Made by a program: the position numbers and the translations under genes. 64,000 nt of DNA from Escherichia phage vB_EcoM-S1P5QW: sequence record OL956808.1; one strand, given 5' to 3'. The number at the start of each line of letters is the position of its first letter. Within the stretch, counting starts at the first letter, position 1. Positions 50-12,499 of the stretch are shown here, in pieces. The notes below the pieces were generated by a model, which worked only from the letters and a program-made list of their open reading frames with translations, was not told where the DNA came from and made no database searches.

Positions 50-2032
50 TCATTGTGATATAGGCTCCAAATCGATAGTTAAGTATTGTGGACGTAAGTC
101 ATTTTCAAATACAATCAGTGAACCATCGCGAGTAAAGATAACATCATCGGTTGGGTCAGAATATAATTCAATAGTCTGAACTTCAAATTTTTCAGATGTT
201 AAATTAATTTTAGCGATATTCCAGTAAATTGTGTCAGCTGGATAGTTTATTTCACCGATAACATAGTATTTGTCACGTCCTGTGGAGTTTGCTAATTTGT
301 TAAAATCGTTTCCTGTATACGGCTGAATGTTTTCATTTTCTGTAACATCGCCAGAAGCAAATGGACCAATAATAACTTTACCAATTCCTTTAGAATCTCG
401 GTCTGTTGATACTATACGAACGTCATATAATACATCTTCTTCTAAACCAGTATCAGGATTTACAACCTTTCGTCCAGAATTAAATGAAAACGTATTAGAT
501 TCCATAGAACGATCTTTTATTTGATTATTGTATTTAATACCTGCTTCAGGCGTTTTATAGAAGTTTTGTACTTCACGAACAATTTGAATTGTCGCTGATG
601 AACCAATGATAGAATGATCTGCATCATCTACATATGTCAACATCTTAGACTTGGCAAAAGACGAGTTAAAAATTTCTACATCTTCGGTATAATAACGATC
701 AATTTTATCAATTATTTGACCTTCGAGCCACTGTTCGGATTCTTGTAGCTTATTTAAAGCATATGTGACTTTTAAATTAGTCTTAATGAAAAGATAATTA
801 GGAGAAATAATTGACGGCGTAATAGGTGCTAAATTATAATCTTTGAGATAATTTTTAATATCTTCACGCTGCACAGTAGTTAAATATAATCCTGATTTAG
901 GTTTAGCAGCAATAAATGCATAACCAGGTTTAGTAGAATCAGTGAAAGTCTGAACGGCTTGAATAATAGAACCAAATCTTTCTGAGACAAATGTATCATA
1001 ATCTGTCGCAGTTACACATCGCTGCTGAGTTTCACGCTTAATAGTACCCAATTCGCGAATACGTTCAATATCTTCTGGATCACCACCACCATCAGCACCA
1101 ACAAAATCTGGGTCGTCGTTTGGATTTTCATTAATATTGATGACAGTTATATTTGTTAATGTATCTGCATATGAAAATCCGACTGCGCCATTCGCATCTG
1201 CACCGTTAGTACTGATGTACTCAATAACAATAGTAGAGTTCTGGGTAGGTTTAAGACCTCCGATATAATTAGCGGTCAAAGCTCCTTCAGAAGCATTAAC
1301 AGAAATTTCACCTTCACCAAAATAGAATTCAGTGTTTCCGTCAATAGTTTCACGCATATAGTAAATCGTTGATGTTGAACCAGCATGAACCATTGACTTT
1401 CTCGTCCAGTTAATCCATTCCGCTCCATCAACATATAATTTAACCTGGTTTCTATCAATATTTTTATCATAAATGATAATAGGTGTTAATTTATCATAAA
1501 TGATTTCAGTTCTTACTATACGTCCCTGGGCCAATTTTAAACGTGGAAAATATTGGTTATTTTTATCACGAATAGCAATAACGTCTTCGGTAGAAACGAA
1601 GTTATATGGATTAACAGAAGTATCTTTTGCATATGCTAAAAAGCGAGTTCCGCGAGGAATAGTAATGTAATTCCTATTCAATGCGTCGGTGCATGTTAAC
1701 ATAATTTCGGTCTGCGCAGCGGATTTTGAAGTAGGTAAATATCCGTTATCTTGTGCAGCTTGAACAACTGAACTTCGTAAGTTAGCAGTACGCATAAAGC
1801 TTTCGTACACAGCAGCATTACCAAACTGCTGAATGTACAATGTATTATAAGCCAAAAGGTCACACAGAACGTTTAATCTTGAGCCTTCAAAATCATAATC
1901 CAAAAATTCATTTTGGCCATTAAGCCATTCAATGAGGTTTTGTTTTATTTCAGCAAACGTACCCCCGACGAATATCTCGGGAATAGCATTTGCTGTTCTT
2001 GTTAATTGATAATTTACAGGGGTATTTGCCAT
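50..2032 (-). CDS. 6: baseplate wedge subunit gp6
   Basis: 660-aa ORF; length and position downstream of 53-5-5.1-5.4 on the same strand match T4 gp6. Confidence 0.85.
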   Translation of the reverse strand: MANTPVNYQLTRTANAIPEIFVGGTFAEIKQNLIEWLNGQNEFLDYDFEGSRLNVLCDLLAYNTLYIQQFGNAAVYESFMRTANLRSSVVQAAQDNGYLPTSKSAAQTEIMLTCTDALNRNYITIPRGTRFLAYAKDTSVNPYNFVSTEDVIAIRDKNNQYFPRLKLAQGRIVRTEIIYDKLTPIIIYDKNIDRNQVKLYVDGAEWINWTRKSMVHAGSTSTIYYMRETIDGNTEFYFGEGEISVNASEGALTANYIGGLKPTQNSTIVIEYISTNGADANGAVGFSYADTLTNITVININENPNDDPDFVGADGGGDPEDIERIRELGTIKRETQQRCVTATDYDTFVSERFGSIIQAVQTFTDSTKPGYAFIAAKPKSGLYLTTVQREDIKNYLKDYNLAPITPSIISPNYLFIKTNLKVTYALNKLQESEQWLEGQIIDKIDRYYTEDVEIFNSSFAKSKMLTYVDDADHSIIGSSATIQIVREVQNFYKTPEAGIKYNNQIKDRSMESNTFSFNSGRKVVNPDTGLEEDVLYDVRIVSTDRDSKGIGKVIIGPFASGDVTENENIQPYTGNDFNKLANSTGRDKYYVIGEINYPADTIYWNIAKINLTSEKFEVQTIELYSDPTDDVIFTRDGSLIVFENDLRPQYLTIDLEPISQ

Positions 2033-5665: not shown

Positions 5666-6489
5666 TGGCTATTTTTCAAATAATTAATGAAAGCACTCCC
5701 CAAGTTCCAAAGGTTAAGCAATCATTAAACGAAAAGAAATGGATTCAGATAGGTCTTGAATACAGAAAGGCCAAAGCAAAAGGAATGACAGGAAAGCAAT
5801 TTGCTGAAGAAAGAGGAATCAAATACTCTACGTTTACTTCGGCAATGTCAAAATATGCTTCAGGAATTAAAACAGCTGAAAAGATTCAAAAGCTTGAATC
5901 AAAACCAATGAATAAACTCAATAAGCAAGAAAGACAACTGCTTATGATAAATTCATTCAGGCAAACATTGCGTGATAAAATTCGTAATGAAGGTGCAGCA
6001 ATTAATAATAAAACCAGAAAGTGGTTTGCTGAAACTATTAAGCAAGTAAAAGGACATAAAGTTGTTCGCCCGCAGCCGGGACGAATATATGCTTTTGCTT
6101 ATGATGCTAAACACAAGGAAACTCTTCCTTACTGGGATAAATTTCCTTTGATAATTTACCTTGGTTTAGGTAAGCATAATTTAATGTACGGATTAAACTT
6201 GCACTATATTCCACCTAAAGCTCGTCAGCAATTTCTAGAAGAGCTTTTAAAGCAATATTCAAATACACCTACTATTACTAATAAAACGAAATTAAAAATT
6301 GATTGGAGTCAAGTGAAAGGATTTAGGGGTGCAGACCAAATGATTAAGGCATATATACCTGGTAATATTATGGGTAGCCTTGTTGAAATCGCCCCGAAAG
6401 ACTGGGCGAACGTTGTATTAATGCCACTTCAGCAGTTCGTTTCAAAAGGAAAACGTTTCTCTGCAAACAAAGTCTGGTCAAATATCTAA
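5665..6489 (+). CDS. 2: DNA end protector protein gp2
   Basis: 274 aa, start overlaps gp4 stop (ATGA-type coupling); T4 gene order. Confidence 0.85.
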
Positions 6490-10156: not shown

Positions 10157-10807
10157 ATGTCTCGTCGTGAGACGCTCAGTTCTTTATTAGGGACTGATAT
10201 GCATTTTTATCTTTATAAAATAACAAATAAAATTAATAATAAAATTTATATTGGTGTGCATTCTACCGAAAATTTAGATGATGGATATATGGGTTCTGGT
10301 AAATTATTAAAAAGAGCCCAAGATAAATATGGTATAGAAAATTTTTCTAAAGAAATATTAGAGTATTTTGATGATAAAGAATCTATGCTTGAAGCCGAGA
10401 AAAATATTGTCACAGAAGAGTTTTTAAATAGACCAGATGTGTATAATTTAAAACTTGGAGGTGAAGGTGGATGGGATCATATAAATAATTATCCTATGAC
10501 AGATCAGCAACGCGAATTAATTTCATTGGGTGTTAAAAAGGCACATTCTAACGGAAAATTAAAAGGATGGTCTTCAAATGGATTAATGAAAAATGGCTTT
10601 GCTGGTAAAACTCATTCTCAAGAAGCTAAACGTAAAATAGCAAAAGCAAACGAAGCAAAAGTTTCTGCGAATGAAAGAAAAAGAAGAATAGAAATTTCTA
10701 AATTATATGATTTTTCTAAGCGGGGTGAATTATCTAAATATGCTAAGCATATTGGCGTAAGTCATACTCAAGCAAAAAGAATTCTAAATCAAATTAACAA
10801 TATATAA
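10157..10807 (+). mobile_element. segB: GIY-YIG homing endonuclease (SegB-like) inserted in tRNA cluster
   Basis: 216-aa ORF with GIY-YIG motifs (FYLYKI...KIYIGVHS) and repeated NUMOD3-like motifs; lies between tRNA-Gly and tRNA-Ser. Confidence 0.8.
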
Positions 10808-10985: not shown

Positions 10986-10986
10986 G

Positions 10987-11061
10987 GCCCTGTAGCTGGA
11001 AGGTTCAAGCAAGCGACTCATAATCGCCAGATGGTGGTTCAATTCCACCCAGGGCCACCAA
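10987..11061 (+). tRNA. tRNA with CAU anticodon (Ile by analogy with T4 tRNA-Ile, or Met)
   Basis: acceptor GGCCCTG/CAGGGCC, anticodon loop CTCATAA; D-arm atypical. Confidence 0.65.
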
Positions 11062-11235: not shown

Positions 11236-11349
11236 AATTTGTGACAACTGTCACATTAATATCTACTTGACGCGATTATCGGGGTTGAACTGATCACTCT
11301 TCTCTTAATTTCGTGTGAAGACATCTTGATTGTTGGAGTAGGTATTAAT

Positions 11350-11425
11350 GTGGCCGTAGTTCAGTTGGTAGAACTCGAGATTGTGATTCTCGTAGTCATG
11401 GGTTCGACTCCCATCGGTCACCCCA
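11350..11425 (+). tRNA. tRNA-His (anticodon GUG)
   Basis: anticodon loop TTGTGAT, discriminator C73 then CCA, T-arm ATGGGTTCGACTCCCAT. Confidence 0.7.
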
Positions 11426-11429
11426 ATTA

Positions 11430-11505
11430 CGGGGCATAGCTCAGAAGGAAGAGCAAGGACCTTCTAAGTCCTGGGTCGTAGGTTCGATCCCTACTGCCTC
11501 GACCA
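11430..11505 (+). tRNA. tRNA-Arg (anticodon UCU)
   Basis: anticodon loop CTTCTAA, T-arm GTAGGTTCGATCCCTAC, CCA encoded. Confidence 0.8.
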
Positions 11506-11820
11506 AACAAGAAGCCGGGTCGCTACCGGTAAGTCGTCGGACTGATGTTCCCTGGGTAAGGACTGGCATTAACAAATCTTTACGATCGGTTAATGCCCCC
11601 TTACATCACAGCAGAAACGGCGCACCGAATTATCGATTCGAGGAAATATCTTTGCCGTAAGCCGAGTAGCGTTTTTGACGGAACGTTCGGATATGGTCGA
11701 GATATGGCCTTTTAAAATATTAAGTAGCGTCAACTGCTTAATAACCGGGTTCGAATCCCGGCGTTTCGTACAAACACTTGCCTTAGCAGGTGGAACCCCG
11801 ACAAGGTTGCCGCAAGGCTT
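11506..11820 (+). ncRNA. candidate small stable RNA region (T4 species 1/2, RNA C/D-like)
   Basis: ~300 nt without convincing ORF, relatively GC-rich, contains tRNA-like T-arm CCGGGTTCGAATCCCGG, ends at a hairpin terminator. Confidence 0.35.
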
Positions 11821-11848
11821 AGCCCCGACCGAAAGGTTGGGGCTTTTT
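11821..11848 (+). terminator. intrinsic terminator hairpin plus T-run
   Basis: GCCCCGACCGAAAGGTTGGGGC followed by TTTTT. Confidence 0.7.
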
Positions 11849-11850
11849 AG

Positions 11851-11858
11851 TATAAATA
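11851..11858 (+). promoter_or_regulatory. late promoter TATAAATA
   Basis: exact octamer 37 nt upstream of the 11895 ORF. Confidence 0.5.
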
Positions 11859-11894
11859 AGTATATTAAAACCACGAATTAAAACAGGAAATAAG

Positions 11895-12368
11895 ATGAAA
11901 TCATATGCTCAATTTTTAAATGAAGCGGTGTTAAATGAAGCATCTAGCACCGAAATTCAAGCCGTTGCAAAAGCTGCCATTGCCGCGGGTAAATATTCCT
12001 ATAAAGATGCTTCTGATGAGTCACGATTCCAATTTGCTCGCGATATGAAAGCGGAAGGATTTACAGGGAATGCAGTTAGTATGGCCTGGAAAAGTCTAGT
12101 TGCTACTGGAGCTGCTTTTGCAAAGGCTTCGGGTAAACCTGCTCCTAAAGCAGATCCTAAAGTCACACAAGAGAAAAATATTGTTAAAGGAATTATCTCC
12201 AAATATGAAGCTATCCTTAAAGAGCTTTTAGTAATCAAAACTGAAGGCCAAAAACTGGCTCGTGCTTATAGTTTCAAAGATAACCCACATGCTCACTCTC
12301 TTGAGTATGTTGAAGACATCCAAAAAATTATTAAAGACCGCATTTGGTCTGCTAAACAAATCAAATAA
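11895..12368 (+). CDS. internal-protein-like protein (degenerate capsid targeting sequence)
   Basis: 157 aa, N-terminus MKSYAQFLNEA resembles CTS; Ala/Lys-rich. Confidence 0.55.
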   Translation: MKSYAQFLNEAVLNEASSTEIQAVAKAAIAAGKYSYKDASDESRFQFARDMKAEGFTGNAVSMAWKSLVATGAAFAKASGKPAPKADPKVTQEKNIVKGIISKYEAILKELLVIKTEGQKLARAYSFKDNPHAHSLEYVEDIQKIIKDRIWSAKQIK

Positions 12369-12375
12369 CATTCTT

Positions 12376-12403
12376 AGCCCCGACAGAAAGGTTGGGGCTT
12401 TTT
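12376..12403 (+). terminator. intrinsic terminator hairpin plus T-run
   Basis: AGCCCCGACAGAAAGGTTGGGGCT then TTTTT; near-duplicate of the 11821 hairpin. Confidence 0.7.
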
Positions 12404-12499
12404 GGCATCTAGGCTTTTCCGGGCCTCTCTAGGCATCATTTAGTTTATATCCTTTATAATATATTATCCTATCCTTTGATTTCCCCTCCCTGCCCTAGA

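Follow-up and report, generated by a model that had tools for sequence, protein, structure and literature searches.

The tRNA operon of Escherichia phage vB_EcoM-S1P5QW, a Tequatrovirus (T4-like) transfer RNA (tRNA) operon, continues for some distance beyond its last canonical tRNA gene, which raises the question of what its 3' end encodes and what role the products might have. The 3' end lies at positions 11506-11848 of the 64,000-nucleotide (nt) stretch of record OL956808.1 that was analysed as a whole and is referred to here as the window. Ten tRNA genes were detected by ARAGORN between 9913 and 11505, and the region in question starts right after tRNA-Arg(UCU), with the beginning of the RNA gene rnaD only 1-2 nt beyond the CCA of that tRNA. 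Alignment showed that T4, RB6 and GiZh are colinear with the window from tRNA-Arg through the terminator, with rnaD (species 2 RNA) preceding rnaC (species 1 RNA) in the transcript. The identity of rnaC to its T4 counterpart is 135/139, that of rnaD is 104/121 and that of the trailer and terminator taken together is 75/79 (rnaC/rnaD being features T4s001 and T4s002 in NC_000866); rnaD also has the same length as RB6 rnaD, with no indels, and scored 132.9 bits with the rnaD covariance model (R2). The original prediction, made from the sequence alone, had matched the position of this region to that of the T4 stable RNA species 1 and 2, and on the strength of the colinear alignment and of the identities to T4 this interpretation is correct. 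Both RNAs are already known T4 elements, and judged by sequence it is practically certain that the copies in the window are orthologues of T4 rnaC and rnaD, and so the same entity. As an overall explanation, a locus encoding two distinct stable RNAs, both structured and non-coding, with a conserved trailer hairpin and the operon terminator behind them, is very likely to be the best one.

The region was found to be widespread in databases. A blastn search with positions 11506-11860 matched 805 phage records, nearly all of them from T4-like enterobacterial phages, and 679 of the 805 cover at least 80% of the query. The matched region is labelled rnaC/rnaD in few carefully annotated records, namely those of RB6, GiZh and T4 (NC_000866), and most GenBank records carry one to three "hypothetical proteins" over rnaD/rnaC, with a handful annotating the RNAs. 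The 58-nt Northern probe used for T4 RNAC (PMC9697503) matches window positions 11633-11690 exactly; in that study RNAC of T4 was validated by Northern blot, as a stable transcript of about 140 nt, and RNAC and RNAD were both classed as late. For rnaD, a stable transcript of about 120 nt is described in the T4 literature. Compared with T4, the order after tRNA-Arg and the trailer and terminator are the same and the two RNAs show allelic differences only (97% identity for rnaC and 86% for rnaD), while this phage adds a tRNA-His upstream and an ORF cassette (open reading frame, ORF) downstream. Since the adjoining tRNA-Arg is identical to that of T4 at only 50 of 76 positions, rnaC and rnaD are better conserved than the tRNA beside them.

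No plausible ORF had been noted in the region, and none was found to be conserved. The longest open stretches are of 95 amino acids (aa) in the window and of 47-59 aa in T4, with none of at least 45 aa in IME08, and these stretches shrink or vanish although the homologous DNA is 86-97% identical. It is accordingly scarcely credible that the region encodes one or more small proteins: the 95-aa stretches on both strands of the window and the hypothetical-protein annotations of many GenBank records would speak for such products, but substitutions track base-pair covariation and not codon periodicity. The higher G+C content ascribed to the region was also borne out (0.48-0.52 across 11400-11849 compared with approximately 0.26-0.40 in the flanking coding DNA), and the upstream tRNA genes have the same high G+C content.

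The fold of rnaC was examined by comparative analysis. The rnaC set consisted of 19 distinct sequences from GenBank phages and IMG/VR contigs, representing Tequatro-, Mosig-, Karam-, Teguna-, Gelderland- and Mosugukvirus together with the L014-16 group, and in all 19 the length is 139-142 nt, even with the middle third falling into mutually unalignable classes. A plain MAFFT alignment of 16 distinct sequences (at least six genera) gave, with RNAalifold, a consensus in the form of a tRNA-shaped four-way junction of 43 pairs. Within this consensus 95.6% of cells are paired, compared with 35-47% in slid controls whose partners were moved by 1-3 columns, and compensatory change is seen in 27 of the 43 pairs. 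The observed value was matched by 0/500 shuffles on four of five measures and by 1/500 on the fifth. The rnaC of the window folds to the same structure on its own (minimum free energy of -50 kcal/mol, z = -4.2).

In this structure a terminal stem of 7 base pairs (bp), formed by both ends of the RNA, directly abuts a 5-bp T stem with a UUCGAAU loop. The T-arm-like element reported in the original prediction is present and belongs to rnaC only; its stem covaries (CCGGG/CCCGG, CCUGG/CCAGG, CUUGG/CCAAG) and is paired in 100% of cells. The acceptor pairing proposed to flank it, CGGAACG with CGTTTCG, stood only as far as it can form in this phage (7/7, one G.U). It is not the conserved pairing, showing no covariation across the 16 homologues (81.3% paired vs. 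83.0% in shuffles), and in the fold CGGAACG pairs within the rnaC long arm, providing the apical hairpin there with its 3' strand; the actual partner of CGUUUCG is CGAUUCG at the 5' end of rnaC. The terminal stem so corrected covaries (C-G/A-U, G-C/A-U, U.U/U-A/C-G, giving 3 compensatory pairs), and 0/500 shuffles matched its percentage paired or its covariation score. In the tail U73, C75 and A76 are invariant, so that an invariant U is followed by NCA or CCA: CCA is encoded in 4 of the 16 sequences (L014-16, PM2), ACA in T4 and Karamvirus, and UCA in Tegunavirus. At -1, just before the terminal stem, most sequences have a U. Where D and anticodon arms would be expected there are a 70-nt arm, a linker of 6-9 nt and a 10-bp hairpin with a conserved 6-nt CGYCAA loop, which is separated from the T stem by one nucleotide. 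The junction segment GGCC...AAAAU, with GGCC at 11706-11709 in the window, is invariant and unpaired. Overall, invariant nucleotides gather at the junction, the T loop and one hairpin loop, and the long arm is constant in length and variable in sequence.

The likeness to a canonical tRNA lies in the 7-bp stem stacked on the 5-bp T arm (UUCGAAU), the discriminator-like U and the NCA/CCA end, and the hairpin 1 nt before the T arm occupies the same place as the hairpin of class II tRNAs such as tRNA-Ser. In contrast to a canonical tRNA, rnaC has neither D arm nor anticodon arm, has a length of 139 nt, contains tandem U.U mismatches, scores below the Rfam tRNA threshold and has no consistent anticodon, ARAGORN calls being inconsistent or absent. 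The rnaC covariance model (R1) recovers rnaC at 22 loci. Real tRNAs can also be fitted to it from end to end, at low scores of 15-27 bits, and among single tRNAs class II tRNA-Ser matches best (22-27 bits). An apparent R1 match at L022 1074-1187 proved to be an artefact spanning two neighbouring tRNAs. Acceptor/T mimics are also found in the tRNA-like domain of transfer-messenger RNA (tmRNA), in the bacterial Y-RNA-like YrlA and in the 3' tRNA-like structures of plant viruses, where the mimic recruits tRNA enzymes and some other module stands in for the remaining tRNA body. With tmRNA, rnaC has only this mimic in common, as it contains no tag ORF or pseudoknots; ARAGORN did not call a tmRNA, and over rnaC neither the tmRNA nor the YrlA family of Rfam was matched.

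ARAGORN does, however, call a 94-nt "tRNA-Lys(ttt)" at 11678-11771 inside rnaC. That rnaC holds a genuine decoding tRNA-Lys(UUU) of 94 nt with a long variable arm is suggested by this call, by the 7/7 pairing that ACGGAAC/GUUUCGU can form in the window, in line with the acceptor pairing of the original prediction, and by CUUUUAA at 11709-11715, the same seven letters as the anticodon loop of E. coli tRNA-Lys. Such a tRNA is nevertheless highly improbable. The call is absent in T4, RB6 and GiZh, which differ by one A in the A run and by two bases, and it turns into "tRNA-Phe(gaa)" in the Karamvirus-like contig L013. Its internal stem does not covary and is disrupted in TG1, Melville, L014-16 and PM2, the would-be anticodon stem pairs at only 3/5 positions, and C-U-U of the "loop" sit in covarying helix 2. 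There is no Rfam tRNA match over rnaC (RF00005 gave none even at E up to 10, and the tRNA-Sec model reached 17 bits against a threshold of 47), and the mature T4 RNA is annotated as 139 nt and not 94. The call is an artefact of the tRNA-like 3' half of rnaC, and as there is no anticodon arm, rnaC cannot decode. A mimic of the tRNA-Lys anticodon loop, in which CUUUUAA would act as decoy against an anticodon nuclease (PrrC, for example), was also considered and judged unsupported, the central two bases being variable (UU, UG, AC, CU, AU), a flanking stem being absent and 3/7 bases lying in a covarying helix.

The rnaD consensus is made up of a 5' hairpin, a closing helix, a second helix and a variable apical hairpin, so that the 5' hairpin is followed by a long and irregular one which G[U]CGUCG/CGGCGC closes. 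The segment UUCCCUG is unpaired between the helices, with its core CCCUG invariant in the first 19 sequences, and across genera AAGUCGUC and CCCUG are the invariant unpaired segments of rnaD. In a plain alignment 96.5% of cells are paired. Diverged rnaD copies were found by model R2 in L015, L016 and L022, with two more in PM2, and in these even the closing helix, elsewhere invariant, shows compensatory change (from G-C to C-G and from G-C to A-U). Structure prediction with covariation, one of the checks proposed with the original prediction, supported the folds of both RNAs, and confidence that rnaC and rnaD fold as modelled is high. Rfam gathering and E-value scans of the window returned no family for either RNA. 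The features of the locus are collected in Table 1.

Table 1. Window coordinates of the RNAs, their structural elements and adjoining features at the 3' end of the tRNA operon.
Feature	Position	Strand	Basis or remark
tRNA-Arg(UCU)	11430..11505	+	Final canonical tRNA of the operon; ARAGORN; Rfam tRNA 63.9 bits
rnaD (T4 species 2 RNA)	~11507..11627	+	Coordinates carried over from RB6 and T4 annotation
rnaD 5' hairpin P1	11514-11530	+	Consensus fold
rnaD closing helix P0 (G[U]CGUCG/CGGCGC)	11533-11539 with 11618-11623	+	Consensus fold
rnaD invariant unpaired CCCUG	11550-11554, inside UUCCCUG 11548-11554	+	Alignment
rnaD variable hairpin P3	11556-11604	+	Consensus fold
rnaC (T4 species 1 RNA)	11633..11772	+	11633-11770 by T4/RB6 annotation; rnaC model R1 148.6 bits
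rnaC acceptor-like 5' strand (CGAUUCG)	11634-11640	+	Pairs with 11762-11768
rnaC long arm (70 nt)	11641-11711	+	Opens from a 3-bp helix
rnaC A-rich linker	11712-11717	+	Consensus fold
rnaC 10-bp hairpin, loop CGUCAA 11728-11733	11718-11743	+	Consensus fold
rnaC T arm CCGGG-TTCGAAT-CCCGG	11745-11761	+	Consensus fold
rnaC acceptor-like 3' strand (CGUUUCG)	11762-11768	+	Consensus fold
rnaC tail, invariant U then ACA	11769, then 11770-11772	+	Alignment
Conserved 3' trailer	11773..11820	+	Between rnaC and terminator; fold z = -4.1
Intrinsic terminator of the tRNA operon	11821..11849	+	Annotated as terminator in GiZh
Second terminator copy	12373..12408	+	Direct repeat; closes inserted cassette

In other genera rnaD forms the 5' part of a longer RNA. 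There, in Karam-, Jiaoda- and Mosugukvirus and in L016, a conserved and structured 3' domain of ~130 nt comes after the rnaD-like one; T4-type rnaD is without it. The loci of this 3' domain are L007 780-918, L008 783-906 and L013 6909-7045, together with positions downstream of the rnaD-like matches in L016 and L023, and it contains the motifs AAAGAUUAUAUCUGUGCACGGGUAUAUGAGAGCC ... CACGAAAG. A long-range helix of NNNNNUUUCG with CGAAANNNNN closes the domain; it covaries by eye and competes with a local hairpin. Rfam scans of Karam-, Jiaoda- and Vequinta-type loci gave no family for the longer rnaD-containing RNA. Two further ideas on rnaD were tried and set aside. A tRNA-like 3' end (GGCGCACC[A]) is not conserved, several Tequatroviruses having CACAG and the RNA running on in other genera. 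The likeness to hammerhead ribozyme cores, seen by eye in rnaD (CUGAUG...GAAAC) and in the 3' domain of Jiaodavirus (UGAUGAG...CGAAAG), was rejected, with no space for stem I, a U as the equivalent of A9 and no Rfam hammerhead match.

The distribution of the two RNAs among phages was found to be uneven. Dhakavirus IME08 has kept rnaD and the trailer and has rnaC cleanly deleted, and in Karam-, Teguna-, Gelderland- and Mosugukvirus rnaC lies between tRNAs with no adjacent rnaD. A full rnaD is present in the Vequintavirinae phages W70 and A73, and in W70 (L004 2422-2600) it stands directly 3' of a tRNA-Met(CAU) that is identical at 72 of 75 positions to the window tRNA at 10986-11060. This sharing of rnaD and a near-identical tRNA-Met suggests, at the sequence level, that tRNA-array segments have been exchanged between T4-like and rV5-like coliphages. 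Each of the two RNAs behaves as a self-contained mobile cassette within phage tRNA arrays, with rnaD crossing into Vequintavirinae.

With regard to maturation, RNase P is known to recognise its substrates by a 12-bp acceptor/T minihelix that ends in a 3' NCCA. Because rnaC has an acceptor/T stack and a 3' NCA tail, it is probably excised by the host tRNA machinery, and what is known of tRNA maturation makes its processing by tRNA enzymes a reasonably likely course. It is proposed that rnaD and rnaC are co-transcribed with the operon tRNAs and that RNase P would cut the 5' end of rnaC, after which the 3' end would be trimmed, the CCA repaired and, following end processing, the T loop modified, the same host machinery excising and stabilising the RNA. 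Trimming and repair have been reported for T4 tRNAs without an encoded CCA (PMC11143913).

The function of the two RNAs is a question open since the 1970s. The RNA sequence of species 1 determined in 1975 reportedly showed tRNA-like features. The title of a 1978 paper refers to "transfer RNA-like molecules" in T-even infections, and papers of 2010, 2022 and 2025 still call the function of the species 1/2 RNAs unknown. As the invariant nucleotides of rnaC cluster and its long arm keeps its length only, shape-dependent protein binding is favoured over base pairing. The best guess, held at low confidence, is that rnaC is a protein-binding tRNA mimic or decoy. It would act in trans by occupying a protein that recognises tRNAs, be it a defence enzyme of the host directed at tRNAs or an enzyme of tRNA processing, and rnaD would act through its invariant unpaired loop. 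Since rnaC cannot decode, a putative action could only be that of a decoy or inhibitor. The full form of this proposal is a tentative one and rather unlikely as a whole: rnaC as a non-decoding decoy or inhibitor of an enzyme that recognises the acceptor/T elbow, rnaD as the surviving 5' domain of a wider, so far undescribed family of structured RNAs from phage tRNA arrays, acting via CCCUG, and the two together as counter-defence or host-takeover factors. Candidate targets of the decoy under the same proposal are a tRNA-targeting immune nuclease and a nucleotidyltransferase.

Phage tRNAs are known to counter tRNA-targeting defences (PMC10264068, PMC11464382, PMC11555353), with T5 tRNA-Lys acting against PARIS (PMC11464382), tRNA-Tyr acting against a retron (PMC11555353) and anticodon-loop variants being described (PMC10264068). 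Like rnaC, these tRNAs are encoded in phage tRNA arrays; they differ in being decoding tRNAs which replace cleaved host tRNAs, rnaC being non-decoding. Defence conflict could plausibly explain why tRNA-shaped RNAs are retained by selection even though phages can do without them on laboratory hosts, and the mobility of the cassettes fits the current view that conflict with host defences directed at tRNAs shapes these arrays. It has also been reported that the sole single nucleotide polymorphism common to all lines of a T4-like phage evolved experimentally on the host ECOR34 mapped to rnaD (PMC12685909). If true, a decoy or counter-defence role would answer a 50-year question on the species 1 and 2 RNAs.

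A number of points weigh against this picture of the folds, of tRNA-like maturation and of action in trans. T4 mutants deleted for the entire tRNA region are able to grow in laboratory hosts, and neither RNA is indispensable, as Dhakavirus is without rnaC and several genera are without rnaD beside rnaC. In the T4 annotation rnaC begins 1 nt before the cut predicted for RNase P and closes with ...GUA instead of a CCA, so the match between predicted processing and the deposited T4 coordinates is inexact. The acceptor-like stem of rnaC has two central U.U mismatches in 13 of 16 sequences. Most of the rnaC and rnaD sequences are closely related, and counts of cells consequently overstate the number of independent events. 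The 31-sequence rnaD alignment has 93.9% of cells paired and compensatory change in 15 of 20 pairs, but as one fitted to the model it leans towards that model.

It might also be that the RNAs have no trans function and are a structured operon spacer or trailer which guides or protects the precursor, their stability being that of by-products. Their location, always within tRNA arrays, their dispensability in some lineages and the 50 years that have passed without a function being found are in keeping with this. It is nonetheless unlikely, as are the roles that the folds would then be given, those of entry sites for RNase P, E or III or of a barrier against 3' exonucleases. A complete acceptor/T mimic ending in UNCA would be superfluous in a spacer, and a spacer role does not account for unpaired nucleotides that are invariant across genera (GGCC, AAAAU and CGYCAA in rnaC; the two invariant segments of rnaD given above), for the length to which rnaC is held, or for the movement of each RNA as a cassette among array positions and into another phage subfamily.

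Finding rnaC and rnaD again is not news, since both are textbook T4 features. What the comparison adds, as refinements not found in the literature searched, is a covariation model that spans genera, a correction of the acceptor stem, the behaviour of the RNAs as cassettes and the connection of rnaD with a longer RNA family. The comparative models offer experimental handles on function, namely the terminal acceptor/T mimic with its UNCA tail, the constant-length arm and the invariant loops. Annotation of these RNAs is poor at present, with no Rfam family, spurious "hypothetical proteins" and ARAGORN mis-calls as tRNA-Lys or tRNA-Phe.

Beyond rnaC, the trailer, which is 50 nt long by the annotation carried over from the related phages, contains a 7-bp hairpin, CACUUGC-CUUA-GCAGGUG, at 11775-11792, followed by AACCCCGACAAGGUUG, a half-copy of the 5' arm of the terminator. 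The trailer is nearly invariant in T4, RB69, RB6 and IME08, including IME08 with its deleted rnaC. The hairpin terminator predicted for the end of the region was confirmed as a 10-bp stem (7 G-C pairs) with a GAAA loop and a T5 run (hairpin 11821-11844 plus TTTTT); it is conserved in T4, RB69 and RB6 and has the G+C-rich hairpin and U run by which an intrinsic terminator is recognised. Trailer and terminator together would give a terminator-ended fragment of ~79 nt, positioned like the 3' external transcribed spacer (3'ETS) of a tRNA operon. The trailer might thus represent a further small RNA, the third of the locus, or else serve as a signal for processing.

In E. coli, 3'ETS-leuZ is a spacer RNA of a tRNA operon which is released by processing, binds Hfq and sponges small RNAs (sRNAs). 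The trailer and terminator of the window are in the 3'ETS position, and this genomic position would fit release from a tRNA precursor; rnaC and rnaD differ from 3'ETS-leuZ in being much larger and more structured. A similar genomic logic, RNAs being released from a tRNA precursor, would apply if rnaD, rnaC and/or the terminator-ended trailer were base-pairing riboregulators or sRNA sponges. Such a role could draw on the A-R-N-like 5' leader of rnaD (AACAAGAAG), on the invariant C/U-rich unpaired UUCCCUG and, in the P3 loops of other genera, GAGUUCCCUC, and on a nearly invariant trailer in which a seed-like hairpin is followed by a terminator with a U tail. It remains a doubtful one, as no target has been identified, the P3 loop motif is absent from T4-type rnaD and the pattern of conservation in rnaC indicates shape and not a seed. 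A blastn search of 5,426 complete E. coli genomes found no homologue of or similarity to the region, a search by which short seed matches would not be detected. An anti-Shine-Dalgarno role for the C/U-rich loops of rnaD was not adopted either; the second motif is absent in the T4 type and the idea stays speculative.

The reported duplication of the terminator was verified, the second copy being 92% identical over 36 nt. Between the two copies lies an inserted cassette (11850-12408) that is absent from T4 and RB6. It begins with a T4-late-promoter-like TATAAATA at 11851-11858, followed by a 157-aa ORF (11895-12368) which matches phrog_2280 and has no Pfam match. The sequence beyond the second copy (GGCATCTAGGC...) resumes that which follows the single terminator of T4 and RB6, and from the sequence the terminator repeats look like recombination joints of the inserted cassette.

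Further differences were noted upstream in the array. A GIY-YIG homing endonuclease gene resembling segB (10157-10807; Pfam GIY-YIG, SegE_GIY-YIG and NUMOD3; phrog_314) lies between tRNA-Gly and tRNA-Ser, and tRNA-Pro, which holds that place in T4, RB6 and GiZh, is missing from the array of the window. Between tRNA-Asn and tRNA-Arg the window also has an insertion relative to RB6 and GiZh (11236-11425), consisting of a non-coding spacer of 114 nt and a tRNA-His. A 24-nt inverted repeat (83% complementary) pairs the start of this spacer (11244-11267) with the start of tRNA-His (11337-11360). In other phage tRNA regions a further conserved non-coding block was observed at L022 ~560-790 (-), at L023 ~5890-6090 (-) and, in L016, downstream of the rnaD-like RNA. 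Its motifs are GGCAGUC(C/U)A(G/A)AGAGAUGAGU ... GUUCUAC.UCAAGCUACUUG ... CCCGGACAAAUGCGGGUUAACUUCA, and it may, as far as sequence conservation indicates, be another undescribed structured RNA.

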